From Candidatus Gottesmanbacteria bacterium (GTDB lineage: Bacteria; Patescibacteriota; Microgenomatia; UBA10105; UBA927): 64,000 nucleotides of DNA. Shown here in pieces: positions 1 to 60,442 of this stretch. Location: NCBI GenBank assembly GCA_963711735.1, contig CAVQFA010000005.1:135525-199524 (forward strand). Direction: 5' to 3'. A model generated the notes under the pieces. That model had not been told where the DNA came from and ran no database searches. It was given only the letters and a program-made list of their open reading frames with translations. The position numbers and the translations under genes are program-made. The stretch's first letter is position 1. Every line of letters starts with the position of its first letter.

Positions 1-18435
<18,435 letters not shown>

Positions 18436-18484: not shown

Positions 18485-19876
18485 TTACTCTTCTTCCCAG
18501 GAAATGAACTCGTAATCACCCTGACTGGGGAAATACGGCGGAGGTGTGAAGTACAGATTGGTATCATACGTGATGGACCTCGTGGTAAATCCTGATGTCG
18601 GCGGAGTACTGAAATTCCAATAGGATTTCTGGTTGCTGATGACCGATCCGTAAATGGTCAGGGAGTTGCGTACGGCGTTTGAAAGCGTACTGCACCCGGA
18701 ATAGCGGTAGTTATGCCGGATAATCCGGCCGCTGGCAGACAGGAGTGCGCCGTTAATTTCAAAATTCGTCGGGATATTATACCGGAAATAAATGTTATTC
18801 TGGGAAAAGATTCCGAGTTGCGTGTGGCCGTCTTTGGCGATGTATGTCAGATTATTATTGATCCATATGTTCATGAAGTTGACACCCAACGGAAACCTGG
18901 CTGCAACGACCGTTGCCCTGCCGTTGACGACCCCGTCGACCCAAAGATGGTCTTCGGCAAAAATAATCGGTTTGAGTGCGAGTGAGTAGGTACCGATGAG
19001 CGTCTGGCCGGTTATATCCTGGCGGAGACTTTCGCATCCTCCGTCAGGGCTCCATCCTCTCACGGTATTGGCACCGGTGACCCTGTATACCGTCACGTTT
19101 CCGTCTGCGGTAAAGACCAAATGGTATCCGTACGCGCCTGATGCCGCCAGATAGACACCGTTATTCTGTGCCTGGGTCCGCATGAGATTAAAATCAATCT
19201 GGAGGCTGTTAAAGTCAGCCGGAGGAACAGGAAATGACCACAGTGATGACGGACCGCCCGCGCCCCACACGCCGTTTCTCGTCGCTGACGGGCTGCAGCC
19301 GGTTTCACTCCCGCACGTATACGTCTGGCGGGCGCTTTCGACGGATGAATCATTCGCTCCGTCCATCCTGATGCCGCCGTTGCTCATCACTTTTCCGTGC
19401 ACGGTGATACCCGTACCGAACCAGACGTTGGCGTTATGGAGGAATGAATATTTTGCAAGCGACGGGATACCGTACCGCGCTTTCACTTTCCGTTTAATTT
19501 CCGGATAGCTTGTCAGCCATCCGGTAGACTCGATCGTAACAATGGAGGATCCGGATGCAGGAGGGGTGACGTTCAGGCTGAATACCGCTTCCGTTTTGCC
19601 GTACGGGTCCGGCATCTGGTGGACATACGGACCGGGATTTCCGGTGCCGTCGGTGAAGTCATTCGGGGCATGCGCGAGGTGCCACCGGTAGTATTCGGCG
19701 CCTGCCTGCGCTATATCGATGGCCCTTTCATACACGACGGTACGCGTTGATGCCGTGTACTGGACGCCGGCGATAAGCACAATACCGGTTATGGCAATGG
19801 ACATGGTGACGCCGATCACCAACACCAGGATGGATATGCCGCCCTTCCGGTATGTATGTAAAAATAGTTGTTTCAT
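18485..19876 (-). CDS. Large PilX-like type IV minor pilin / pseudopilin (463 aa). It has an N-terminal hydrophobic helix followed by a PilX_N-like 'YERAIDIAQAGAEYYRW' segment.
   Basis: The N-terminus reads 'RKGGISILVLVIGVTMSIAITGIVLIAG'. It overlaps the upstream pilin gene by 4 nt, which suggests an operon. Confidence 0.6.
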   Translation of the reverse strand: MKQLFLHTYRKGGISILVLVIGVTMSIAITGIVLIAGVQYTASTRTVVYERAIDIAQAGAEYYRWHLAHAPNDFTDGTGNPGPYVHQMPDPYGKTEAVFSLNVTPPASGSSIVTIESTGWLTSYPEIKRKVKARYGIPSLAKYSFLHNANVWFGTGITVHGKVMSNGGIRMDGANDSSVESARQTYTCGSETGCSPSATRNGVWGAGGPSSLWSFPVPPADFNSLQIDFNLMRTQAQNNGVYLAASGAYGYHLVFTADGNVTVYRVTGANTVRGWSPDGGCESLRQDITGQTLIGTYSLALKPIIFAEDHLWVDGVVNGRATVVAARFPLGVNFMNIWINNNLTYIAKDGHTQLGIFSQNNIYFRYNIPTNFEINGALLSASGRIIRHNYRYSGCSTLSNAVRNSLTIYGSVISNQKSYWNFSTPPTSGFTTRSITYDTNLYFTPPPYFPSQGDYEFISWEEE

Positions 19877-20496
19877 AGGTTTGTTTTCAGTGTCCTGATC
19901 GCCACTCCGCTTCGTACAAAAAACGGTCCGGCGGCAAAATTATCGGTTATGCTGATACCGAGCTGCACCCGGATATACCGCGTATTTAAAATCCTCTGCG
20001 CGGTTGGCAGCGGATTGTTCACGATGTCGTCCGGCCAGTCACCGTTATAATACAAAAACATCGGACCCCCTGACGTGACGACATTATCCGCAATACTTAT
20101 TATCTTTTCGTTTGCCGGCGGGTAAGAAACCGGGACTGCGGTCGGTTCGGTAACTCCCCGTCTGAGTGTTGTCCCCTCGAGAAAGTACCGGATTTTATCC
20201 GGCCTGCCGTCATTGGTCACGTCTGCGAAAAACGTTATCGCAAAATCATCACACAACAAAAACGGCCATGATCCGTCATCACCCATCCTGGCTTCCCTGA
20301 GTTCCCGTATCATCCTGGTGTGGGCATTTTGTACTCTTGTGACCTGCTGGGCTTCTTCGATGGAAAAGGATGTATTACGCAGGTAATAAACGGAGAACAG
20401 AGAAACAGCCAGGACAACACTGCCGAATATGAATACGGCGACGACCATTTCTACCAGCGTAAAGCCCTGAGATCGTGTTTTACGGAATCGGTACAT
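19873..20496 (-). CDS. Type IV pilin-like protein with a canonical prepilin N-terminal cleavage/methylation motif.
   Basis: The N-terminus reads 'RSQGFTLVEMVVAVFIFGSVVLAV', matching the G|FTLVE pattern with Glu at +5. The protein is 207 aa and overlaps both neighbouring genes. Confidence 0.8.
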   Translation of the reverse strand: MYRFRKTRSQGFTLVEMVVAVFIFGSVVLAVSLFSVYYLRNTSFSIEEAQQVTRVQNAHTRMIRELREARMGDDGSWPFLLCDDFAITFFADVTNDGRPDKIRYFLEGTTLRRGVTEPTAVPVSYPPANEKIISIADNVVTSGGPMFLYYNGDWPDDIVNNPLPTAQRILNTRYIRVQLGISITDNFAAGPFFVRSGVAIRTLKTNL

Positions 20497-21946
20497 ACGG
20501 ATTTAATATGATTGTATCCCTTTGGTTGCCTGAAATGGTTACGGACGTCGTGGCTTCCTGAAATCCCGGTAAGTTTACCGAAACGCTGTACTGACCCAAA
20601 CCCAACGACCCGAAATATGCCTGCCCGTAACTGGCTGACCCTGTCGCTGCAGTTATGACAGTTTTATCGTACCCGAGCGGTACGTTCAAAAGACGCGCGC
20701 TCGCTGATGCCTGCGGCGTGAGGAGTGTGTCTTTGACGGTCAGCTGGTAGGATGCCAGTGTTTTGGGAACCGCGACGATAACAACGGAACCGTTCGTTCC
20801 GGCAGGTAAAAGGTAGGGAAGCAGGGGGCTGGAGCCGGCGAGCATATGAGCGGAATCGGTAAAATCGAGCGTATAGACGTCCCACTCAAGTCCGACGATC
20901 GTGACGGTGCTCCCGCCCGTATTTGTCCTGTACTCATACTTATACACCGATTCGTCGGTTGCATCGTGCCCGATGAGTTTGGCGCCGCGAAGGGTAAAGT
21001 ACACGTTGGCGATGGGCTGCATGGCTTGGTTCACTGAGTCGATTTTGATGGTTGATGTTTTATCTATGGCGAGTGACGCCTGTGACAGTTGTCCTTCGAT
21101 AACCGTGAGGTCCGGGAGTATCGGGTTGGTCACTTCGCTTGGTGAGTACGTACGGTCCGATGAATACGTTGCTTTTGATGCGGTTATCCGGTAACAAAGG
21201 ACACACGCGGGAGCGCCCGGAATGACGACGGTGCCTGTTGCCGAGGTGAGGGTTGTAGTGTGTATCGGCGGAACAACGGAAGTGTTATCGATGTTCACTG
21301 TCGCATTGGAAACCGGCAGGCCGGCAGAGTCAAATACCTGTACAAGCAGTGTCCCCCCGCCTTCGACCGTCTCTACCCCCTTCGGGACGAAGTTGGTGAC
21401 GAGCGTTACCGGTTCGCGTGACTGATATGGTCCGGTCCACCGCACCTGTACCCGCACCCGTTTATAATCCGTATTTATCATATCCGCCGGCGCCAATCCG
21501 TCAAACGGGTCGTCGATATACACGACAGACGTCGTCACGGTAAAGACCTGGCTGTTGATGGTTTCTGTTCTGGATTGGGGGAGCGGGCCGTTCGGTATAC
21601 CGCCTACCGTTCCGATCTGAAGGTACGGCAGATTGCGGGCTTCTTCGATGGTTTCCCGCGCCAGGGCCAGAGCGGTCACCTGGATTCTGGAAAGGGCAAT
21701 TTGTTCAATGACAACCTGGACAATAGTGGCTATGGAAGTGAAAAAAATGCCGATAACCGCCAGGGCAACCAGCGTTTCGATCATGGATATGCCTGCCAAA
21801 CGGTTGTTTTTCGGAGATTCAGCAGGTGCGGGGGATTTCTGTACCGGTATCGTTTTTGCGTACCGGTGCAGGCAATATGAGACGGTTCTCCTCAGACGGG
21901 ATTTGTTCAGGCAGATTTGACCCATTACGATTATTATACCTATCAT
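20480..21946 (-). CDS. Large prepilin-like minor pilin (PilV/PilW-like). The true start is probably internal to the annotated ORF.
   Basis: The motif 'NNRLAGISMIETLVALAVIGIFFTSIATIV' places Glu at +5 after Gly, followed by a hydrophobic helix. The C-terminal domain is 488 aa. This is the first gene of a three-gene minus-strand operon. Confidence 0.7.
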   Translation of the reverse strand: MIGIIIVMGQICLNKSRLRRTVSYCLHRYAKTIPVQKSPAPAESPKNNRLAGISMIETLVALAVIGIFFTSIATIVQVVIEQIALSRIQVTALALARETIEEARNLPYLQIGTVGGIPNGPLPQSRTETINSQVFTVTTSVVYIDDPFDGLAPADMINTDYKRVRVQVRWTGPYQSREPVTLVTNFVPKGVETVEGGGTLLVQVFDSAGLPVSNATVNIDNTSVVPPIHTTTLTSATGTVVIPGAPACVLCYRITASKATYSSDRTYSPSEVTNPILPDLTVIEGQLSQASLAIDKTSTIKIDSVNQAMQPIANVYFTLRGAKLIGHDATDESVYKYEYRTNTGGSTVTIVGLEWDVYTLDFTDSAHMLAGSSPLLPYLLPAGTNGSVVIVAVPKTLASYQLTVKDTLLTPQASASARLLNVPLGYDKTVITAATGSASYGQAYFGSLGLGQYSVSVNLPGFQEATTSVTISGNQRDTIILNPYVPIP

Positions 21947-22083: not shown

Positions 22084-22488
22084 ATGCGTATGGATATAGA
22101 TAAAAAACCGGTCATCACGGCAGCCGGCATTGCGGGAGTTGCAGTGTTTGTGATGGTTGTCATTGCCGGAATATTTTTGTGGCAGAAAAACCGTACACCC
22201 GGATTATCCGTACAAACCGGAGATGCTCAGATAACTCCTGCCACAACGGATGCATCAAACGATGTCGTGTCCCGTGTCGGGCGCCATATGATCCTACCCC
22301 CCGAAACGCCGAAGGTGGTTCCGGTAGTCACCGCGGAAGAGCTGAAAAAAACGCAGCCGTTTTTTGCCAACGCAGAGAATGGTGATGTGCTCCTTGTCTA
22401 TACAAATAAGGTAGTTTTATATAGTCCGAAGCTGGATAAAATCGTAGAGATTGCCCATTTCCGGGAGGCAACAGGATCAGGAAATTAG
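22084..22488 (+). CDS. Small N-terminally membrane-anchored protein (134 aa). It is a paralogue of the N-terminal/central part of 50165..50932.
   Basis: It contains the TM segment 'AAGIAGVAVFVMVVIAGIFLW'. It shares the motif 'PFFANAENGDVLLVYTNKVVLYSPKLDKIVEI' with 'AFFARAENGDRVLFYASVKKAILYRPSTGKIIDM' in the other gene. Confidence 0.55.
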   Translation: MRMDIDKKPVITAAGIAGVAVFVMVVIAGIFLWQKNRTPGLSVQTGDAQITPATTDASNDVVSRVGRHMILPPETPKVVPVVTAEELKKTQPFFANAENGDVLLVYTNKVVLYSPKLDKIVEIAHFREATGSGN

Positions 22489-22505: not shown

Positions 22506-22536
22506 GCAGTGTCCGCGCATTACTGCGTTTGTTTTT
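22506..22536. terminator. Weak candidate bidirectional terminator between two convergent genes. It has a short stem (gcagt/actgc) followed by a T-run.
   Basis: The sequence is 'gcagtgtccgcgcattactgcgtttgttttt'. The stem is only 5 bp and overlaps the stop codon of the minus-strand gene. Confidence 0.2.
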
Positions 22537-24337
22537 CCCAAATAGCAAGCCACTCCTGTGCCTGAATATTTTCATTATCCAATGAAATTGCCTTCCGGAG
22601 CATCGCTTTGGCTTTCTCCCGGTCACCGAGTTTGTTGAGCGTCATACCCAGATTTGAGTAAAAATATGAGGTGGTGTGTCCTGCCCTGATTGCTGCCTCA
22701 ATGACGGCTTTTGCTTCTGTATACTTCCCTTCGTCATAATATTTAGACGCCAGGCGTTCAAACGAGGCAGAGAAGTTCGGATCAAGTCGGATGGCGCGCA
22801 TGAGGTACTCATTTGCCTGGTCGGGCTGGTTGGTGGCATCAGCTATGAGGCTCATGTTATACAACGCTCCGGCATATTTCGGGTTGATCCGTGAGGCGAT
22901 TGCAAACTCCTTTTGCGCGTTTGTATAATCCTGCTGACGGTAGTAAGACACGCCGATATTGTTATGGAGCCGTGCATCGTTGGGGGCGGTTTTCAGGGAT
23001 GCGGCCGAGAGCGTGTACTGGTCTTTCCAGTCATTGTTCCGTATGACCGTACGGACAGTGAGAGCCGCTACCAAAATACCAAGGAGAAGGTACACGCCTG
23101 TGGGTTTGTTGATCTTGGCAAAAACCCAGTCCATTGTATAGGCAATCAGAACGATTACTCCCAACGCGCCGAGGTATACATACCGTTCAGCTGCCATCCA
23201 GGAGATGATGATCGGGGAAAACGAGGGAGAGAGGCTGATGAAAAGGACAGACAGCCAGAAGAAGTGGCGGCGGTTGCCGAACCAGCTGGCTATCATGATG
23301 CCGGCAACGGATATAAACGCCAGCAGCCGGAGCATGTATTCCGTAAGCGGGAATGCAAGTTGCGAATGGAAAAAAGCCAATTTATCCGGCCAGACGATAA
23401 GATCCAGATAGATGGATGTCGCAATCGGTATCTGCACAAAGGGATTGAATATTCCGACAGCATCGTAATTTGTTTTCTGAAGCGCTGCTACCCGCGTTTG
23501 GAAGTACTGCGTCGGTCCGAAGATGAAAAACAGCCAGAGCATGGTGAGTGCAACAAAGGGAATCACCCGTTTCCAATTCTTTTTCAGATTTCCAAACGCG
23601 AGTTCATAGGTAACAAACGCAAGCGACATGGGAATGGACTTTTCGCAGGATGCAAGCATGAGGGTGAAAAAAATTAGCGAAGCTATATACCATCGTTTGT
23701 TTCCAATGCTTACAATGTAAGTAATCATTGAAAGGAGGAAGAACAAACTGTACTGCACGTACGTACCGCCCACAATCCACGTCACTGCTTCCGTGGCGAT
23801 CGGGTGAACGGCAGCAATTGCTGCAGCAATGAGTGCGGTCCGTTTGTTTATCATAATTGCCACCAGCACATAGAGAGCGAAAGTAACTCCCGTGTGGAGC
23901 ACTATGTTGACGATGTGAAACGGAATAGGGTGTAATCCTCCGACAAGGTATGTAAGCCAGTTGATGAATGCCCAGGCGATGGTCATGGGACGGTCCAATA
24001 CGAATTGGAAAGACGTCATGTGCGGATTGTTTACAAGGTATGGGATATCATCCTGCAGGAATTCTCCCCGAAGGGCATTGGCATAGGATATACAGATAAT
24101 CACTGTCAGAATAACAAATATCAGTTTGGAAGAACATATAATGTTCCAAACAGATTGGGGAGTCTTTGTTATCTTCCGCCATGAAGCGCTCATAATGGGT
24201 GACTCCCTGCCATGGAGTTGCTTCTGAATATATGTGTGTACTTCCTGTTCGCTTACCTCCAGGTGTTTGGCAATATCAGAAGGTAAATCCGATGAGAGAT
24301 GTTTCTTTATATATTTTTGTTTCTTGTGGGATAACAT
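22520..24337 (-). CDS. Polytopic membrane protein with a C-terminal TPR-repeat domain. The architecture is that of GT-C-fold PMT/DUF2723-like protein O-glycosyltransferases.
   Basis: The 605-aa protein has about 10 hydrophobic segments in its N-terminal 400 aa. TPR-like repeats occupy the last ~200 aa, for example 'NNIGVSYYRQQDYTNAQKEF...ALYNMSLIAD...AIRLDPNF'. Confidence 0.8.
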   Translation of the reverse strand: MLSHKKQKYIKKHLSSDLPSDIAKHLEVSEQEVHTYIQKQLHGRESPIMSASWRKITKTPQSVWNIICSSKLIFVILTVIICISYANALRGEFLQDDIPYLVNNPHMTSFQFVLDRPMTIAWAFINWLTYLVGGLHPIPFHIVNIVLHTGVTFALYVLVAIMINKRTALIAAAIAAVHPIATEAVTWIVGGTYVQYSLFFLLSMITYIVSIGNKRWYIASLIFFTLMLASCEKSIPMSLAFVTYELAFGNLKKNWKRVIPFVALTMLWLFFIFGPTQYFQTRVAALQKTNYDAVGIFNPFVQIPIATSIYLDLIVWPDKLAFFHSQLAFPLTEYMLRLLAFISVAGIMIASWFGNRRHFFWLSVLFISLSPSFSPIIISWMAAERYVYLGALGVIVLIAYTMDWVFAKINKPTGVYLLLGILVAALTVRTVIRNNDWKDQYTLSAASLKTAPNDARLHNNIGVSYYRQQDYTNAQKEFAIASRINPKYAGALYNMSLIADATNQPDQANEYLMRAIRLDPNFSASFERLASKYYDEGKYTEAKAVIEAAIRAGHTTSYFYSNLGMTLNKLGDREKAKAMLRKAISLDNENIQAQEWLAIWEKQTQ

Positions 24338-38164
<13,827 letters not shown>

Positions 38165-38380: not shown

Positions 38381-50082
<11,702 letters not shown>

Positions 50083-50164: not shown

Positions 50165-50932
50165 TTACTGGGGTTTGTAGTCAGAACCTATGATAATGAG
50201 GATATCTGCATCAGGTTTAGGTTCATCTGCAGGGATATTTTGTCCCACCCCTCCGATTACCTGTGCAATTTCTGAGCTGACCGCGCTTGTTGATTCATTG
50301 AGGTTGGCGACAATCGTCTTCGTATAATCAGTTTTTACGGCATTGTCTTTGCGCACAACTTCAATATTCGCAACATGTTCTTTGATAAACCCTTCCATAT
50401 TATTAGCAAGTTTTGGGGTTGTTGTACCGTTGAAAATGGCAATTCGAACCGGTGCAGCTATTGTGACAGTCGGAGCAGACGATTCAGCTTGCGTTTCTGC
50501 TCCTGCAACTTGGGCTGATGGTGTCGATCCGCCGACATTTACCGGAGACATATCGATAATCTTGCCGGTTGACGGACGATAGAGAATTGCTTTTTTCACA
50601 GACGCGTAAAAAAGAACCCGATCGCCGTTTTCAGCACGTGCAAAAAATGCCTGGTCCTTCAGTTTCTCTTTATCAGACACGGTGGCGATAGTCGGCTCTT
50701 CACCAACCGGCACATCGACTATTTTTGCAATTGTAACAATCAGCTCCTTATTTTCTACCTTAACCGCCTCAGCGGGATTTTTGAGAAGATCTTTGGTATT
50801 TTTCCATTGCCGGTAAAAATAGACAGACGGGGCAGTGACGATGAGGATGACGAGAATTATTCCGGCAATGATTGCGTGTTTTTTTGTGAGTTGAATCGTC
50901 ATGGCATAATCATAAAGATTTATGGTTGTCAC
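50165..50932 (-). CDS. N-terminally membrane-anchored protein with a LytR_C-like (LytR/CpsA/Psr C-terminal) domain.
   Basis: The TM helix is 'AIIAGIILVILIVTAPSVYFY'. The C-terminal segment reads 'IFNGTTTPKLANNMEGFIKEHVANIEVVRKDNAVKTDYTKTIVANL...DADILIIIGSDY'. The central part is paralogous to 22084..22488. Confidence 0.6.
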   Translation of the reverse strand: MTTINLYDYAMTIQLTKKHAIIAGIILVILIVTAPSVYFYRQWKNTKDLLKNPAEAVKVENKELIVTIAKIVDVPVGEEPTIATVSDKEKLKDQAFFARAENGDRVLFYASVKKAILYRPSTGKIIDMSPVNVGGSTPSAQVAGAETQAESSAPTVTIAAPVRIAIFNGTTTPKLANNMEGFIKEHVANIEVVRKDNAVKTDYTKTIVANLNESTSAVSSEIAQVIGGVGQNIPADEPKPDADILIIIGSDYKPQ

Positions 50933-55281: not shown

Positions 55282-56223
55282 TTACTTGCCTAAGAGCACT
55301 TTGGCTGCCTTGATGATGCGTTTGCGGAGAACGAAAAGGATAATTATTGCAATGACGATGAGTGCTGCGATCCGTATCGGGAAAACGATGAAGGTCGTTG
55401 TTGCGGTAGAACTTTCATTGAGCTTTCCACCTGAGTTGATGATGGCAAGTGCCGTGTATTTGCCGATGAGGAATTTGCTATCCCACACCACGTTTACTTT
55501 TCTTTCAGCACCTGGAAATACGTTGGTTCCGACAGCAACAACATCTTTCACTTTCTTCCCAAACATGTCAGTAATGGCAATCAAACCATGCGGACGGAGG
55601 TGAACGTTTCCGCTGTTTTTATACGAAAGCGTAAATGGAACGGGTCCGAACTCCAGAAATGATGGAGTGGTAAAATCCGTAATTGATAACTTTTCTACTG
55701 TGGGACCCTCTATTTCAATAAGAAAAAGGGAAGCAATTTCCTGCGATAAGCCTGCAGTACCGGCCGATGATTTACCGGCTGCTGTATAGACAAAAGATCC
55801 GTATCTGCCACCTGCCGCATCAGCGGATGGGATGCTCACTGTGGCTATAACCTCTCTTGCCTCATTGGGTCGAAGAGTAAATTCTGTTGTCGAGAGTTTG
55901 GTCCAGCTCGAGACTGACCATGGACCTTTTTCCGTGAGAGCCACTTGTCCTTCATCACCTGATGCGATGAAATCCTCTATACGCGCTTGTATAGTCAAGG
56001 GTTTATCGCTTTTGTTCCGTATAGATGATTTTACTTCCAGAATTTGTCCTGGTTTGGCAGTAAGCTCCTGTGACGGAGGAGACACTTCAAGACCCTGTCC
56101 TACATTGGCAGTCTGGGCGCGCGTCATTTGTGCGATGACGGAAGCTGCAAGGAGTATCGCTCCGGCGATGAGGTAGGGGAGAATTTTTAAATCTCGGTTT
56201 TCTGCAATAAGAGCACGGGACAT
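55282..56223 (-). CDS. Cell-surface protein resembling DUF916/DUF3324 proteins (the Csc-type WxL-partner family). It has a signal peptide and a C-terminal TM anchor with a basic tail.
   Basis: The N-terminus reads 'LPYLIAGAILLAASVIAQMTRAQT'. The C-terminus reads 'IAALIVIAIIILFVLRKRIIKAAKVLLGK'. The protein is 313 aa and is a paralogue of 57479..58459. Confidence 0.6.
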   Translation of the reverse strand: MSRALIAENRDLKILPYLIAGAILLAASVIAQMTRAQTANVGQGLEVSPPSQELTAKPGQILEVKSSIRNKSDKPLTIQARIEDFIASGDEGQVALTEKGPWSVSSWTKLSTTEFTLRPNEAREVIATVSIPSADAAGGRYGSFVYTAAGKSSAGTAGLSQEIASLFLIEIEGPTVEKLSITDFTTPSFLEFGPVPFTLSYKNSGNVHLRPHGLIAITDMFGKKVKDVVAVGTNVFPGAERKVNVVWDSKFLIGKYTALAIINSGGKLNESSTATTTFIVFPIRIAALIVIAIIILFVLRKRIIKAAKVLLGK

Positions 56224-56252
56224 AAATATTTTTGTCGGGCAGCGATTCTTAT

Positions 56253-57371
56253 TTAATACGTTGGTGTGGCAATTAAGACAACACTGCCTGTATATGCTCC
56301 CGGAGGCTGAAAGGTATCTACCTCAATTTGCCATCCAACGCGTTCTGTATCTCCAAGACCTGATCCTGGTGCAGCTATGTTATACATAACCTCTTCGGGA
56401 CTCGTTGTCGTTCCTGCCCAATTTCCGCCATCGAAACGGTTGTCATCGCCTGTAAGTAGGGAATCCTCCGTTGTGTATCCGAAAAAACCGGTATTCACGT
56501 TTTTTGTCTCACCGGTGGGTCCGCTCCAGGGAATAGGAACCGCATTCGATCCGGAGAAATTATCGATATTATTACCCGTTGCACCGTCTGAAAGGGGTGG
56601 GTCAGCATCTGCTTGAACCGTTACGAGGTATCCGTTCGTCGCGTTGCTTTTTATATTGATATCATGTGCAGCAATTTGTGGCGTGTCTGCCGTGAGTGTT
56701 CCGAACGGAATAGTAGAATCCGTCGCAGTTGTCGTGAGATCAGTTCCATTCACCTGTACACCGACTCCTGTGGCTACTGCTGTTACGTTAAATTCAAATA
56801 TGGACTGCACGTCTGCGGTGACGTAAATGGAATCTGTAGCAAGTACTGCAATTGCAGCATCAGCATAATCGATAGGATCGCTATTATCATCAAATGTTGA
56901 GATACGGACGTAGACAGCCGAATTTGCATCTGATGTATTGGTAATTCCACCGAGCGTGAACGTAACAGGATCTGTGGTTTGTGCAAGTATCGAACCGACT
57001 GTGATGCGGGCAGAATTATTGGCACCGCTTATCTGTGCGACGGTTTCACCTGAACCATCAATTCCGTCATTGGAATATGCTATACCGCCTTCTCCGGGAT
57101 CGGTATCGAGATTTGCCGGTGTACATGCTGCATTCGGATCTGAATTCGTACAAAAGTAGATATCCACAGTTTTTATTGCCGTTCCGGATGGTGATCCGAG
57201 ACTAAATGCATACGAAACATCTGCTTTTGATGCACGGGAATCGGATATTGTGACACTTGCCTCAGTAAATGTGACAGCCTGTGCTTTTTTGGCAAAAAAT
57301 GACGGAGCGAGAAGGACAATGACAAGAGAAAGAATAAGTGTGAGTGCAATAGATTTTCGAGCAGGGCGCAT
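56253..57371 (-). CDS. Secreted surface protein (372 aa) with a WxL-like C-terminal region (hypothesis).
   Basis: The signal peptide reads 'SIALTLILSLVIVLLAPSFFAKKAQA'. The C-terminus reads '...ERVGWQIEVDTFQPPGAYTGSVVLIATPTY'. The protein is Thr/Asp/Gly-rich. It is a paralogue of 58483..59577. Confidence 0.55.
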   Translation of the reverse strand: MRPARKSIALTLILSLVIVLLAPSFFAKKAQAVTFTEASVTISDSRASKADVSYAFSLGSPSGTAIKTVDIYFCTNSDPNAACTPANLDTDPGEGGIAYSNDGIDGSGETVAQISGANNSARITVGSILAQTTDPVTFTLGGITNTSDANSAVYVRISTFDDNSDPIDYADAAIAVLATDSIYVTADVQSIFEFNVTAVATGVGVQVNGTDLTTTATDSTIPFGTLTADTPQIAAHDINIKSNATNGYLVTVQADADPPLSDGATGNNIDNFSGSNAVPIPWSGPTGETKNVNTGFFGYTTEDSLLTGDDNRFDGGNWAGTTTSPEEVMYNIAAPGSGLGDTERVGWQIEVDTFQPPGAYTGSVVLIATPTY

Positions 57372-57478
57372 AAATAAATCCTTTCTATATTCACTATACA
57401 GATAAAAATTTCACGGTGTCAATAGGGGATTGGTCTGAATAGAATGCGATAACGCATATTTTGGGGTAAGGAATATAT

Positions 57479-58459
57479 TCATTTCGATGAAAAGAACGTT
57501 TTGACAGCGCGTTTGATATTTTTCCGGACTGCAAGCACAAGCATGAGCATTAGGATAATTCCCGCCCAAGCACCAAATGTTGAAAGCGGTGCTATGAGAA
57601 CGGTTTGTTCGTACGGTTTCGTCCATCTGCCGTTTCCGACAGATACAGCCAGGGAGAGCCGGTAGATATTTGGTTTGGCGTTTTCAAGTATTTTTATTTG
57701 CCATGATCGGATCTTTCCGGGCAGAATGATTTTTTCCGGAATTTCCATGCGATAGGCTTTACGGGATCCCAGAAGTGGGGTAATGGTGATAAAAGGTTTC
57801 GCGCTGAAATGGAATAGGGCTGTATTTTTTACCTCAAACGATGCGTCAATCGGACCCTCTGATGAAATTGTTTGTGATGTAAATGAGAGGATTGAACCGA
57901 TTGTATCGCCCATTGCGTTGTTATCCGGAACACCAAGAGATGCGAGAACTATAACGGTAATTCTCGGAATCACGCGTGGAATTGACGTTTGTGCTTGTAT
58001 CATCGGAGCAATTGTAAGCGTCGCGTAGTATCCGCCGACTTCTACAACCGTCGGTACTTTGATGGTCAATGAAACGGTATGTGTGCCTCGAGCCGGTATA
58101 ATCGTGTCCTCTTTATCAACAACCATCCATGAAGATAGGGGAGATGCGTTCTTTTCATCCTCAGGGACGGCAACATCATCACTTGATGGGATAATACGAT
58201 CGGGTTGTATGTGAACAGGAAGGGGGATATCCGTTAGGTTATCAATACGTACTTCATATATATTTGTTTTCCCTGGTGATAATTGGATGGGGAGTATTGC
58301 AGGAGAAACCCGGATGTTTTGTTCTACTGATTTATCTTTTGATATGTTTTGATCGTTCGATTGAGCATGGGCTGAGAAAGGTATACATAATGATATACAG
58401 AGTAAGATAATAAGAGAAAATATTGAAATAAAATGCTGTTTTGCTTTATATATAGTCAT
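57479..58459 (-). CDS. DUF916-like cell-surface protein (326 aa) with a signal peptide and a C-terminal TM anchor.
   Basis: The N-terminus reads 'FISIFSLIILLCISLCIPFSAHAQS'. The C-terminus reads 'GAWAGIILMLMLVLAVRKNIKRAVKTFFSSK'. Confidence 0.6.
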   Translation of the reverse strand: MTIYKAKQHFISIFSLIILLCISLCIPFSAHAQSNDQNISKDKSVEQNIRVSPAILPIQLSPGKTNIYEVRIDNLTDIPLPVHIQPDRIIPSSDDVAVPEDEKNASPLSSWMVVDKEDTIIPARGTHTVSLTIKVPTVVEVGGYYATLTIAPMIQAQTSIPRVIPRITVIVLASLGVPDNNAMGDTIGSILSFTSQTISSEGPIDASFEVKNTALFHFSAKPFITITPLLGSRKAYRMEIPEKIILPGKIRSWQIKILENAKPNIYRLSLAVSVGNGRWTKPYEQTVLIAPLSTFGAWAGIILMLMLVLAVRKNIKRAVKTFFSSK

Positions 58460-58482
58460 ATTTTGATATATATTGTTCTTTA

Positions 58483-59577
58483 CTAATATTCCGGTACGAC
58501 AATGTAGAGAATTGTCGTGCTGTATGATCCTGCTTTATGACTTTCTGATGCAGTCACGCGGTATCCGATGTTAAACCATTCACCGACAATCGGATTTTCC
58601 TCTACTTTGGCCAGATGGTCAGCAACAGGGTCGCCGGGAACGTTTACGGTAAATCCTGCATATTTCGGACCGCCGTTGGTAAACCTGTCCTGAACACCAC
58701 CTGCCAGGTTGTCGTCAGTTGTCGTATATCCAAAGCCGGTTCCGGTCCAGAGGCTCGGATTTGCGTTTAAACTTCCGTACGCGTCAATTTTATTTCCATA
58801 CATATCCGTGAGAGGTCCCGTATTGTAGGCATAGACGGTATACCCGTTGTACGCGTTCGTAGACGTCGTCACTTTTGTGAATTGTGTACTGTCTGTCCAG
58901 CTGTTCGTGGGTTCGAGCGTATTGAACGTTACGGTATTTCCGCTCACTCCGAATGTGAGCGACGGAATGCTCGTTGTTGCCGCGGATGGCAGGCTCCATC
59001 CGGACTCAGTTTTATCACCGGTTCGCGCTTTTACTTTTACTGCATAGGTCGTGCTCGGATTTAAACGGGAAATAAATACTCCGGCAGTTCCGCCCCAGCC
59101 GGTTTCATAGCCGAGGAAATCTTCAATTCCAAGCGCTGAGCCGATAGTGAGGTCATCCTGGATATAGCGTGTTGTTACCCAGTCATCATCGGAAATGGCA
59201 ACAGCATATGTCGCATCGGTAGGGTTATCTCCGGTATCAATGATAATTTTAAGACGATCGTATGTGCTTCCGGGATTGGTAAATGACGGGGCATCGGGAA
59301 CATTTGCAAGCATGGTGAATACGAGACCTTGTCCGAGAATATGCGTTCCGGCTGACGCGGATGCCCCCGATTGTTCACCTGCAATTGCAGTCATGGTGTA
59401 TGCGTTTCCGGCTGATACGGAGTCATCCGTACCTCCTGCTCCGAAACCATATTGGATAAGTTCATATTTGTCACTGACCGGACCGGCAAGAACGTGTGAA
59501 AAAGGCAGAATAAATATGGATAATATTACGGCGAGTTGTGAAAAAAAAGAAATACCCATGCAATATGTAGTATACAC
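58483..59577 (-). CDS. Secreted surface protein (364 aa) with a WxL-like C-terminal region (hypothesis). It is the first gene of a four-gene minus-strand cluster.
   Basis: The signal peptide reads 'MGISFFSQLAVILSIFILPFSHVLAGP'. The C-terminus reads '...PIVGEWFNIGYRVTASESHKAGSYSTTILYIVVPEY'. Confidence 0.55.
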   Translation of the reverse strand: MYTTYCMGISFFSQLAVILSIFILPFSHVLAGPVSDKYELIQYGFGAGGTDDSVSAGNAYTMTAIAGEQSGASASAGTHILGQGLVFTMLANVPDAPSFTNPGSTYDRLKIIIDTGDNPTDATYAVAISDDDWVTTRYIQDDLTIGSALGIEDFLGYETGWGGTAGVFISRLNPSTTYAVKVKARTGDKTESGWSLPSAATTSIPSLTFGVSGNTVTFNTLEPTNSWTDSTQFTKVTTSTNAYNGYTVYAYNTGPLTDMYGNKIDAYGSLNANPSLWTGTGFGYTTTDDNLAGGVQDRFTNGGPKYAGFTVNVPGDPVADHLAKVEENPIVGEWFNIGYRVTASESHKAGSYSTTILYIVVPEY

Positions 59578-59684: not shown

Positions 59685-60110
59685 TTATAAAGGAATATAG
59701 AACATCGACAGACCGAACATGGCATGGAAATATTCAAATGTAGCAATTTGTCCTATACCGCGCCGGTCAGCAAGAACTGCCATGAGTGCTTTCTGAAAGG
59801 GAATTTCGTTTGATTTATCATTTGCATACAGTTTCATGGCAGCTTTTGTATCGCTTTCATCCGGATAGATGATCGTAATATTGCTTGCCATGACGGTCCG
59901 TAAAAAATCTTTGGCGATAGACGGACTGATGGTTGACGCGATGATGTGGTAGGTATCATTCATGGAAAGGAGGTCTGTCGATAGGTGATATCCTTCAAGC
60001 GCAAAATAACGGAAAAACGCAGATGCCTGATCGTGTTTAGAGTGATTTCTGTCTATAAATGCCAATAACACATCCGGTGCGAGAAATACTTTTTTACTTA
60101 TAAGCGGCAT
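59685..60110 (-). CDS. PIN-domain (VapC-like) toxin.
   Basis: The 141-aa protein begins 'KVFLAPDVLLAFIDRNHSKHDQA...' and has a PIN-like acidic-residue pattern (D at ~aa 12, E, D). It lies 2 nt downstream of a small HTH gene. Confidence 0.65.
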   Translation of the reverse strand: MPLISKKVFLAPDVLLAFIDRNHSKHDQASAFFRYFALEGYHLSTDLLSMNDTYHIIASTISPSIAKDFLRTVMASNITIIYPDESDTKAAMKLYANDKSNEIPFQKALMAVLADRRGIGQIATFEYFHAMFGLSMFYIPL

Positions 60111-60112
60111 AT

Positions 60113-60442
60113 TTATTCTTCCTGATTATCCAAGTGAAAGCTTGCTCCGCGTCCTTCAAATCGGAAAAACGGATCATCATGGGTAAAAGGAATAAGCGGT
60201 ATATTTTTCCGTTCTTTTCGTTTCCGCTCTTTTGCATTTTTCGGAATAAAATCTTTCGTTATCGTATTTAAATCCGTTTCCCGGATACGTACGGCACCTC
60301 CGACTTTTACCGCTGTAAGCTTTTGTTCGCGAATATATCTTCGAATTGTGAGCGGATGAACCTTCAGGATGAAAGCAGCTTGATTGACGTTAAAGAAAGT
60401 ATCCATATGTAAATATATATAATAATATACAATAATATGCAA
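60113..60442 (-). CDS. Small HTH_17 (excisionase/MerR-type) DNA-binding protein, a putative antitoxin partner of the PIN protein. The likely start is the internal Met at ~60406.
   Basis: The protein reads 'MDTFFNVNQAAFILKVHPLTIRRYIREQKLTAVKVGGAVRIRETDL' followed by a KR-rich tail. Confidence 0.6.
   Translation of the reverse strand: MHIIVYYYIYLHMDTFFNVNQAAFILKVHPLTIRRYIREQKLTAVKVGGAVRIRETDLNTITKDFIPKNAKERKRKERKNIPLIPFTHDDPFFRFEGRGASFHLDNQEE

Follow-up and report, generated by a model that had tools for sequence, protein, structure and literature searches.

A TMTC/TfpW-like GT-C/TPR membrane protein encoded beside giant G-X-T collagen-like fibres in a Gottesmanbacteria genome: a candidate fibre O-glycosyltransferase

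Here, we analysed a 64-kb stretch of DNA (the window; all coordinates refer to it unless stated otherwise) from a Candidatus Gottesmanbacteria bacterium (contig CAVQFA010000005.1, positions 135,525 to 199,524). It contains a gene at 22520..24337 on the reverse strand that lies next to genes for giant collagen-like fibres. The gene is a single open reading frame (ORF) from ATG to stop and encodes a 605-aa protein of TMTC/TfpW-like architecture, in which a membrane domain with the fold of GT-C glycosyltransferases is followed by tetratricopeptide repeats (TPRs). An earlier note on this DNA had paired the gene with the fibres, whose Gly-X-Thr (G-X-T) repeats would offer Thr for O-glycosylation. 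Our analysis adds this protein, with good support, to the bacterial GT-C/TPR enzymes of the TMTC/TfpW-like type. Sequence and structure model together show an intact GT-C active site, which is predicted to face outwards, as is the TPR domain. We give slightly less than an even chance to the proposal that this enzyme is dedicated to the fibres as its acceptor. We consider it because a related locus from another organism (L081) keeps the same gene block and because the TPR type is specific to a small clade.

Fold, active site and family of the GT-C/TPR protein

That the gene product is a polytopic membrane protein ending in a TPR domain, as the earlier note described it, was borne out by the single ORF, by Pfam and by structure prediction. 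TPR families of Pfam (TPR_1/2/8 and others) cover aa ~447-600 of the protein (best E = 4e-18), and NCBIfam gave only TPR-driven partial matches, all far under the cut-offs. In the AlphaFold2 (AF2) model of the whole protein (predicted local distance difference test, pLDDT, 89.9), 11 transmembrane (TM) helices are followed by four TPR hairpins and a capping helix. The GT-C membrane domain with its 11 TM helices corresponds to aa 61-445 (23003..24157, reverse strand), as seen with AF2, Foldseek and the positive-inside topology, and the extracytoplasmic TPR domain with four repeats and the capping helix to aa 447-604 (22526..22999, reverse strand). The N-terminus forms a module of three helices that resembles a helix-turn-helix (HTH) domain (aa 1-45; 24203..24337, reverse strand; AF2 helices 4-13, 19-26 and 30-40 with pLDDT 81-92). 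This module has a weak YlxM-like match (E = 0.0085), is retained in about three quarters of the aligned family members and is rich in Lys and Arg, so that it is predicted to lie inside the cell. Lys and Arg cluster on the predicted cytoplasmic side of the protein in general, which results in an N-in, C-out topology. The TPR domain is a candidate acceptor-recognition module.

We modelled the membrane domain alone (pLDDT 93.2, predicted template modelling score 0.93); in full-length searches with phmmer and Foldseek as well as a search of the A2 profile against the PDB, TPR proteins dominated the results. For the model of the membrane domain, the best 26 Foldseek matches in the PDB are all GT-C enzymes, most of them with a probability of 0.96-1.00, and they include AglB, STT3, PglB, ArnT, AftA, AftD, ALG9, Pmt4, Pmt1/2, EmbA and DPY19. 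The best matches reach template modelling scores of 0.47-0.56 (normalised to the query), Pmt4 and Pmt1/2 are distant structural matches with scores of 0.31-0.39, and the top matches mix monosaccharide transferases and en-bloc oligosaccharyltransferases. The Pfam family PMT_2 (PF13231) matches aa 115-271 with 30.5 bits compared to a gathering threshold of 26.1 (E = 4.9e-7) and was also found in ~25 of 120 homologues. A comparison to DUF1736-bearing bacterial relatives with hhalign gave a probability of 100% (E = 2e-74, 519 columns), and a phmmer search of the N-terminal 445 aa against the PDB sequences gave no match. The GT-C homology that had been proposed for the N-terminal domain is thus supported by Pfam, Foldseek and hhalign.

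The acidic motif that had been expected in the first outer loop is present as well. D96-D97 (24047..24052, reverse strand), the candidate catalytic pair, directly follow the first TM helix within the stretch F-x-x-DD-I, in a loop that is predicted to lie outside. The pair is invariant in 39 aligned members, together with H148, V177-H178-P179, W187 and A383-E384-R385-Y386-x-Y388. Across 49 sequences that include distant DUF1736-type members, D96, H178, P179, Y388 and R433 never vary, and the conservation of D97 is 90% or higher. V177-H178-P179 (23801..23809, reverse strand) belong to a conserved stretch AVHPIxTEAVTWI, which aligns to AVHPIHTEAVT of the DUF1736-type family in hhalign, and E384-R385-Y-V-Y388 (23174..23188, reverse strand) form an ERxxY motif. 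In the predicted topology, the DD pair is found in extracytoplasmic loop (EL) 1, the VHP...TEAV stretch in EL2, E232-K233 in EL3 and ERYVY in EL5, and EL4 is long, with an amphipathic helix and W316-P317-D318 (from AF2 and the pattern of Lys and Arg). The equivalents of D96-D97 are motif M1 of the TMTC proteins, D55/E56 of ArnT and D77/E78 of Pmt1, and ERxxY is TMTC motif M7, a proposed donor-phosphate binder (PMC7801869).

From sequence and model, we regard it as highly probable that the protein is catalytically active as a GT-C enzyme; its donor would be linked to polyprenyl phosphate. Since both the GT-C fold and D96-D97 were found, the two refutations named in the earlier note do not apply, these being an N-terminal domain without GT-C-like homology, for example one resembling an O-antigen ligase or a transporter, and the lack of the acidic loop motif. 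The transporter reading is rejected by the fold (transporters in the Foldseek list have a probability of at most 0.21), and an O-antigen ligase or PglL-type O-oligosaccharyltransferase is rejected by the lack of a Wzy_C match in Pfam and of WaaL- or PglL-like structures in the Foldseek list. The more specific label of a PMT/DUF2723/TMEM260-like protein stands only for the GT-C fold and the PMT_2 match. Among the 18 Pfam families found at E <= 0.1, there is no PF02366, MIR or PMT_4TMC, and the label of a GT39 protein O-mannosyltransferase (PMT) was thus rejected. The DUF2723/TMEM260 label was rejected as it has no Pfam match and no TMEM260 among the top PDB structures, and a specificity for mannose was rejected for want of support. 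Instead, the protein is a TMTC/TfpW-like GT-C enzyme.

The closest architectures are those of TfpW and of the eukaryotic TMTC1-4, which are cadherin O-mannosyltransferases of the GT-C/PMT clan with DUF1736 and TPRs. As in TMTC1-4, the N-terminus lies inside, there are 11 TM helices and the TPRs are on the non-cytoplasmic side (PMC7801869). The DD pair in EL1, AVHPIxTEAV in EL2, ERxxY in EL5 and the long EL4 with its amphipathic helix are shared as well. However, the protein is not a strict TMTC member, because PF08409 (DUF1736), expected in the loop between TM helices 7 and 8, has no match at E <= 0.1, because the 'YRP' of motif M2 (SHKSYRP, EL1) aligns to a gap or diverged stretch in hhalign, and because the EL3 pair of motif M4 (KE(T/Q)xxT) is reversed to E-K. 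Within the family, PF08409 is carried only by the distant relatives P0105-7, P0110 and P0120. Unlike TMTC1-4, the protein is bacterial and has the additional cytoplasmic HTH-like module. It has four TPRs, compared to 8-12 in human TMTC1-4.

Among characterised bacterial enzymes, TfpW (~600-650 aa) comes closest in architecture, as judged from its published description. TfpW of Pseudomonas aeruginosa is a GT-C enzyme that transfers D-arabinofuranose to pilin. Its N-terminus is cytoplasmic, 11 TM helices are predicted, periplasmic loop 1 carries an essential DDX motif and the TPR domain is periplasmic as well; it modifies several Ser/Thr and is encoded beside its pilin substrate gene (bioRxiv 10.1101/2020.04.19.049825).

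Collagen-like fibres and the conserved gene block

The proposed acceptors are encoded on the forward strand. Fibre 2 (25010..38164, 4384 aa) has two HTH_17 modules in the cytoplasm, one TM helix, a 2,796-aa G-X-T region (about 25799..34210) and a C-terminal H-type lectin. Fibre 3 (40270..50082, 3270 aa) combines an N-terminal TM anchor with a G-X-T collagen region, Gly_rich_2, H_lectin and SH3_3. In both, the cytoplasmic N-terminus and the single TM helix place the collagen region outside the cell. Fibre 1 is represented by an in-frame tail (11119..18435, 2438 aa) with a 1,179-aa G-X-T region and a C-terminal region that includes a Peptidase_S74 chaperone domain. We counted triplets in Gly-X-Y runs of at least five and found 393 triplets in fibre 1 (Thr at Y in 81%, Ser in 13%), 932 in fibre 2 (76% and 15%) and 647 in fibre 3 (73% and 13%), which adds up to ~1,770 Ser/Thr hydroxyls at Y across the three intact fibres. 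The fibres are thus G-X-Y collagens with Thr at Y far above chance, as the earlier note had described them. Its description of the X position was too narrow, as Ala, Pro or Ser make up about 65-70% of the residues there.

The gene block around the GT-C gene recurs in another organism. The closest relative of the protein (P0002), with an overall identity of 50%, was found on a 4-kb contig (L081) of another metagenome of the Joint Genome Institute (JGI). This contig has the same block as the window, consisting of a gene for a small TM protein, the GT-C gene and a divergent gene for an HTH-TM-collagen protein. The small protein is encoded in the same position and is 51% identical over 43 aa to its 134-aa counterpart in the window. 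The divergent gene (L081 3..1334) lies beyond a 632-bp spacer, and its product has four HTH_17 modules and a TM helix and ends with '...VLGSTGPT' exactly at the contig break; its N-terminus is 60% identical to the N-terminal 129 aa of fibre 2 (E = 2e-46). The third clade member (P0003, 47% identity) also has the small-protein neighbour, but its contig includes only 115 bp of upstream sequence, too little to show a divergent gene.

These relatives also differ from the rest of the family in their TPR domain. The identity of the TM domain to that of the window protein declines gradually among the relatives (54, 49, 45, 44, then ~40%), whereas the identity of the TPR domain drops abruptly (51, 42, then 25-33%), and the same pattern is observed over 261 proteins. 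The TPR type of the window protein is common only to P0002 (51-52%) and P0003 (42-44%), compared to 25-38% in the other relatives. As the TPR domain of the clade P0001/P0002/P0003 differs abruptly while the TM domain declines gradually, these sequence comparisons suggest that the acceptor may have changed. Judged by its sequences and surroundings, this small clade with its own TPR type appears to have left the usual glycan cluster of the family and to have stayed beside the HTH-TM-collagen gene. The clade is small in current data: an exhaustive search of 1.84 billion representatives yielded only one 50%-identity cluster close to the window protein. A scan of metagenome contigs for close relatives found only loci with 29-37% identity and no new fibre-linked clade member. 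Scans of viral contigs with the GT-C protein and with the fibre N-terminus gave no match, and a protein search with the N-terminus of fibre 2 gave none at E <= 1e-5, apparently because the index lacks genes that are this large or truncated.

The GT-C gene and fibre 2 are divergent and separated by an AT-rich spacer of 672 bp (24338..25009, 27% GC). They had been proposed to be transcribed from a shared control region, of which only the geometry could be confirmed. A promoter signal is not above chance, with seven promoter-like sites compared to 7.7 expected in shuffles, and the spacer has no Rfam match. The ~15 nt upstream of the fibre ATG (24995..25009; L081 1335..1350; reverse complement of ATCTATGCAAAGG..) have been kept in both loci and may be a translation-initiation or 5'-untranslated-region element.

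On its other side, the GT-C gene is convergent with the small TM protein gene of the conserved block (22084..22488, forward strand, 134 aa), which has no Pfam family. The two genes are 31 bp apart and a terminator-like hairpin is found at 22515..22528. Beyond the small gene lie three pseudopilin- or minor-pilin-like genes (18485..21946, reverse strand; 488, 207 and 463 aa), which are separated from the GT-C gene by this opposite-strand gene. N_methyl/prepilin motifs are above the cut-off in the 207-aa protein and weaker in the 488-aa protein, and the 463-aa protein has no match in Pfam or NCBIfam. Because of the convergent small gene and the terminator-like hairpin, the GT-C gene is probably monocistronic and does not share an operon with the pseudopilin-like genes. 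The other genes between 18 and 50 kb are the three pseudopilin-like genes, the small TM protein gene and a gene for an HTH-membrane protein, which leaves the GT-C gene as the only enzyme-like gene by the fibres in this region, in agreement with the earlier note.

The fibres have several additional features. Fibres 2 and 3 hold one reading frame for 8.4 and 5.7 kb. At 1..10350, in collagen-coding DNA of which the fibre 1 ORF is only the last in-frame part, the frame of the Gly codons switches ~20 times, and all three forward frames are largely open with 11-18 stops each. This could reflect the decay of a fibre gene, local misassembly of the repeats or something stranger. Fibre 2 contains large near-exact internal repeats (~30000..34200), where one block is found ~10 times, and an earlier segment of ~380 aa is duplicated almost exactly. 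The C-terminal tip regions (14662..18435, 34211..38164 and 47080..50082) differ in their domains: fibre 1 has Peptidase_S74, an intramolecular chaperone of the phage tail-spike type, and fibres 2 and 3 have H-type lectins, which suggests that the tips are sugar-binding and adhesive. Fibres 1 and 2 both end with '...ISPI' after Pro/Thr-rich tails. Cytoplasmic HTH_17/MerR modules of a DNA-binding type are found at the N-termini of several membrane or surface proteins, that is, twice in fibre 2 (25010..25330), four times in its L081 orthologue and once (38381..38570) in a 630-aa polytopic protein (38381..40273). One possibility for an HTH module on a surface fibre or glycosyltransferase is membrane-tethered autoregulation.

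The 134-aa protein, which is kept beside the GT-C gene in two other organisms, has a domain that also makes up the N-terminal half of a LytR_C protein of 255 aa (50165..50932), with the pattern '...FFA.AENGD.(L/V)L(V/F)Y...(V/A)(V/I)LY.P...KI(V/I)(E/D)...'. Further downstream on the reverse strand, four consecutive genes for secreted or anchored proteins (55282..59577) resemble a WxL-type surface-protein locus; one protein has a weak WxLIP_PGBD match just under the cut-off and the other three have no Pfam family. They are followed by genes for an HTH_17-like 109-aa protein and a PIN-like 141-aa protein (59685..60442, reverse strand; recognised by eye only), which may be a toxin-antitoxin pair.

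Family surroundings and alternative explanations

The enzyme belongs to a very large family. In a first search, ~100 proteins of the same architecture with 30-50% identity were found, mostly in Microgenomates-group bacteria of the candidate phyla radiation (CPR). Some homologues are labelled 'protein O-mannosyl-transferase' by JGI, and the most distant matches carry DUF1736, the TMTC signature. The family includes 19,260 clusters of 50% identity at E <= 1e-3 (326 at E <= 1e-30) and is spread over Microgenomates, Moranbacteria, WWE3 and others. Tandem duplication expands it: two tandem GT-C/TPR paralogues of 607 and 606 aa occur in Gottesmanbacteria RBG_16_52_11 (L001 7872..11593), four copies within 15 kb in L053 and two copies in L075. 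We analysed the surroundings of the family, up to 10 kb to either side, in 79 loci of species-representative genomes and in a set of 97 loci that also counts 15 metagenome loci, L080, L081 and the window copy. Among these 97 loci, the neighbours that recur are GT2 (67), radical-SAM/B12 (47), a Wzx-like flippase (25), GT4 (22), an NAD-epimerase (21) and a hexapeptide acyltransferase (18). These surroundings are a lipid-linked-glycan context, which backs the enzymatic reading and not the link to collagen.

A family of this size and spread across CPR lineages, with tandem paralogues and with GT2, GT4, flippase and epimerase genes as its usual neighbours, could have a general role in the envelope. 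The protein would then be a broad O-glycosyltransferase or oligosaccharyltransferase for Ser/Thr-rich surface proteins, or a glycan-polymer transferase, that is located in a fibre-rich region by chance and that would have many acceptors, with the fibres among them at best. The fibre genes fill ~45 of the 64 kb, so that any gene in the window is 'adjacent' to one of them. We nevertheless consider a general role less likely than a dedicated one, as the divergent pairing with the HTH-TM-collagen gene is kept in another organism at ~50% protein identity and as the clade's TPR domain is unlike that of the rest of the family while its TM domain declines gradually. Furthermore, the window copy and L081 are outside the usual glycan cluster and have none of the recurrent GT2/GT4/flippase/epimerase-type neighbours.

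TfpW, with the same architecture and a gene beside pilA, raises the question of a pilin acceptor, either the pseudopilins at 18485..21946 or a major pilin encoded elsewhere. Three pseudopilin-like genes, two of them with prepilin motifs, indeed lie on the same strand within 600 bp of the GT-C gene. However, the opposite-strand small gene and the terminator-like hairpin intervene and no common operon is thus formed, no adjacent gene has the size of a major pilin, and prepilin-like motifs are found near only 4 of the 79 family loci. L081 ends on the pilin side before any pilin genes could show. Together, this makes a pilin acceptor improbable. Lastly, the protein might not be catalytic and might use its GT-C fold only as a membrane platform, for instance as a TPR scaffold for secretion or assembly or as an anchor of the fibres. 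TPR domains commonly mediate assembly, models of PilF/PilW-type TPR proteins also match the protein, and no donor pathway is seen in the window, but the DD, VHP, EK and ERxxY residues are invariant or nearly so across 39-49 diverged sequences, which is unexpected for a degenerate enzyme. We thus regard a non-catalytic role as highly improbable.

Several observations weigh against the fibres as the dedicated acceptor. The synteny rests on one independent locus, L081, and adjacency to fibre genes within the window carries little information alone, being nearly unavoidable given the share of the window that they fill. None of the 79 genome loci has a collagen-like ORF within 10 kb. Across the 96 other family loci, no collagen gene lies close by, and none of these loci outside the window has a neighbour in common with the window or L081. 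The next relative P0004 (46% identity) and the Gottesmanbacteria paralogue in L001 (41%) are found in housekeeping contexts. Within the 64-kb window, there is no gene for a polyprenyl-phosphate sugar synthase, a flippase or sugar-nucleotide synthesis, and the spacer at 24338..25009 shares no regulatory element with that of L081 beyond the ~15 nt at the fibre start. In addition, the known glycosylations of G-X-T collagens (BclA, BclA3) use soluble nucleotide-sugar enzymes and not GT-C enzymes. The dedicated fibre glycosylation put forward in the earlier note thus has the L081 synteny and the clade-specific TPR type in its favour, and neither a family-wide collagen link nor a nearby donor gene.

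A possible route of fibre glycosylation

If the fibres are the acceptor, the GT-C domain would take a sugar from a polyprenyl-phosphate-linked donor that is made elsewhere in the genome, which could be either a monophosphate with a single sugar or a diphosphate with an oligosaccharide. In the G-X-T repeats, the hydroxyls of Thr and Ser at position Y would receive the sugar, with the membrane-anchored giant fibres as acceptors, fibre 2 in the first place and perhaps others. The transfer would occur on the outer face while the unfolded chain emerges and before the triple helix zips up, and the TPR domain may keep hold of this chain in its extended form. In the finished fibre, glycosylated Thr would replace hydroxyproline by stabilising the triple helix and would shield the fibre from proteases. 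Thr-rich triplets are over-represented in bacterial collagens, and (Gly-Pro-Thr)10 is triple-helical only with galactosylated Thr; whether glycosylation takes place on the unfolded chain or the folded helix is stated as unknown (PMC11923368). We tentatively propose that a GT-C enzyme of the TMTC-like kind, with a TPR type of its own, was recruited in this clade of uncultivated, ultra-small, CPR/Microgenomates-like bacteria and would O-glycosylate hundreds to thousands of Thr at Y extracellularly on emerging, unfolded chains. Equally tentative is our view that such a route, being extracytoplasmic, driven by lipid donors and replacing hydroxyproline, would differ from that of BclA and BclA3, where soluble enzymes use nucleotide sugars.

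The pairing proposed here resembles known systems in which a glycosyltransferase is encoded beside its substrate. In Clostridioides difficile, SgtA glycosylates the Thr of the G-X-T repeats of BclA3, and its gene adjoins bclA3 (PMC7157674). In both cases, a glycosyltransferase gene is found immediately beside the gene of a G-X-T collagen-like surface fibre. However, SgtA is soluble and uses UDP-GlcNAc inside the mother cell, whereas the enzyme described here is a polytopic GT-C protein with a predicted outward active site, for which a lipid-linked donor is expected. The fibres in the window are also 10-20 times longer than BclA3 or Bacillus BclA and are anchored in the membrane by an N-terminal TM helix. 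For TfpW, the substrate gene lies upstream on the same strand, whereas the proposed substrate gene here is divergent and encodes a collagen-like fibre instead of a pilin. The acceptor of the TMTC proteins is a folded cadherin domain, compared to the unfolded G-X-T chain that would be the acceptor here.

Outward transfer from lipid-linked donors is known from streptococcal GT-C enzymes (PgtC2/GtrB and the Pgf system with PgfS and PgfM1), which use sugars on undecaprenyl phosphate to modify outer Ser/Thr-rich regions; the pgf cluster of Streptococcus mutans also encodes adhesin substrates (PMC12041528). Unlike the protein described here, these enzymes belong to the YfhO family and have no TPRs, and their acceptors are disordered Ser/Thr tracts instead of collagen repeats. 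They work with a known partner GT2 (GtrB or PgfS), of which the 64-kb window has no counterpart. The GT39 PMTs (yeast Pmt1/2/4 and actinobacterial Pmt) and ArnT (GT83) share the GT-C fold and the acidic pair in loop 1 with the protein. Unlike the GT39 PMTs, it has TPRs in place of MIR domains, and the acceptor of ArnT is lipid A and not a protein.

It is plausible and partly supported that the GT-C gene and the G-X-T fibre are a further case, of a new type, in which a glycosyltransferase gene adjoins that of the fibre it modifies. Should the pairing prove wrong, the gene would simply be one more glycosyltransferase of a family that is common in CPR bacteria. Among the collagens of bacteria and viruses, Thr-rich G-X-T collagens are the most frequent type, and an outward-facing GT-C protein beside membrane-anchored G-X-T fibres provides a concrete enzyme-substrate pair for testing. 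If true, the pairing would give the very large bacterial TMTC-like GT-C/TPR family its first substrate, and it would bear on how episymbiotic ultra-small bacteria build and protect long adhesive fibres with H-type lectin tips.

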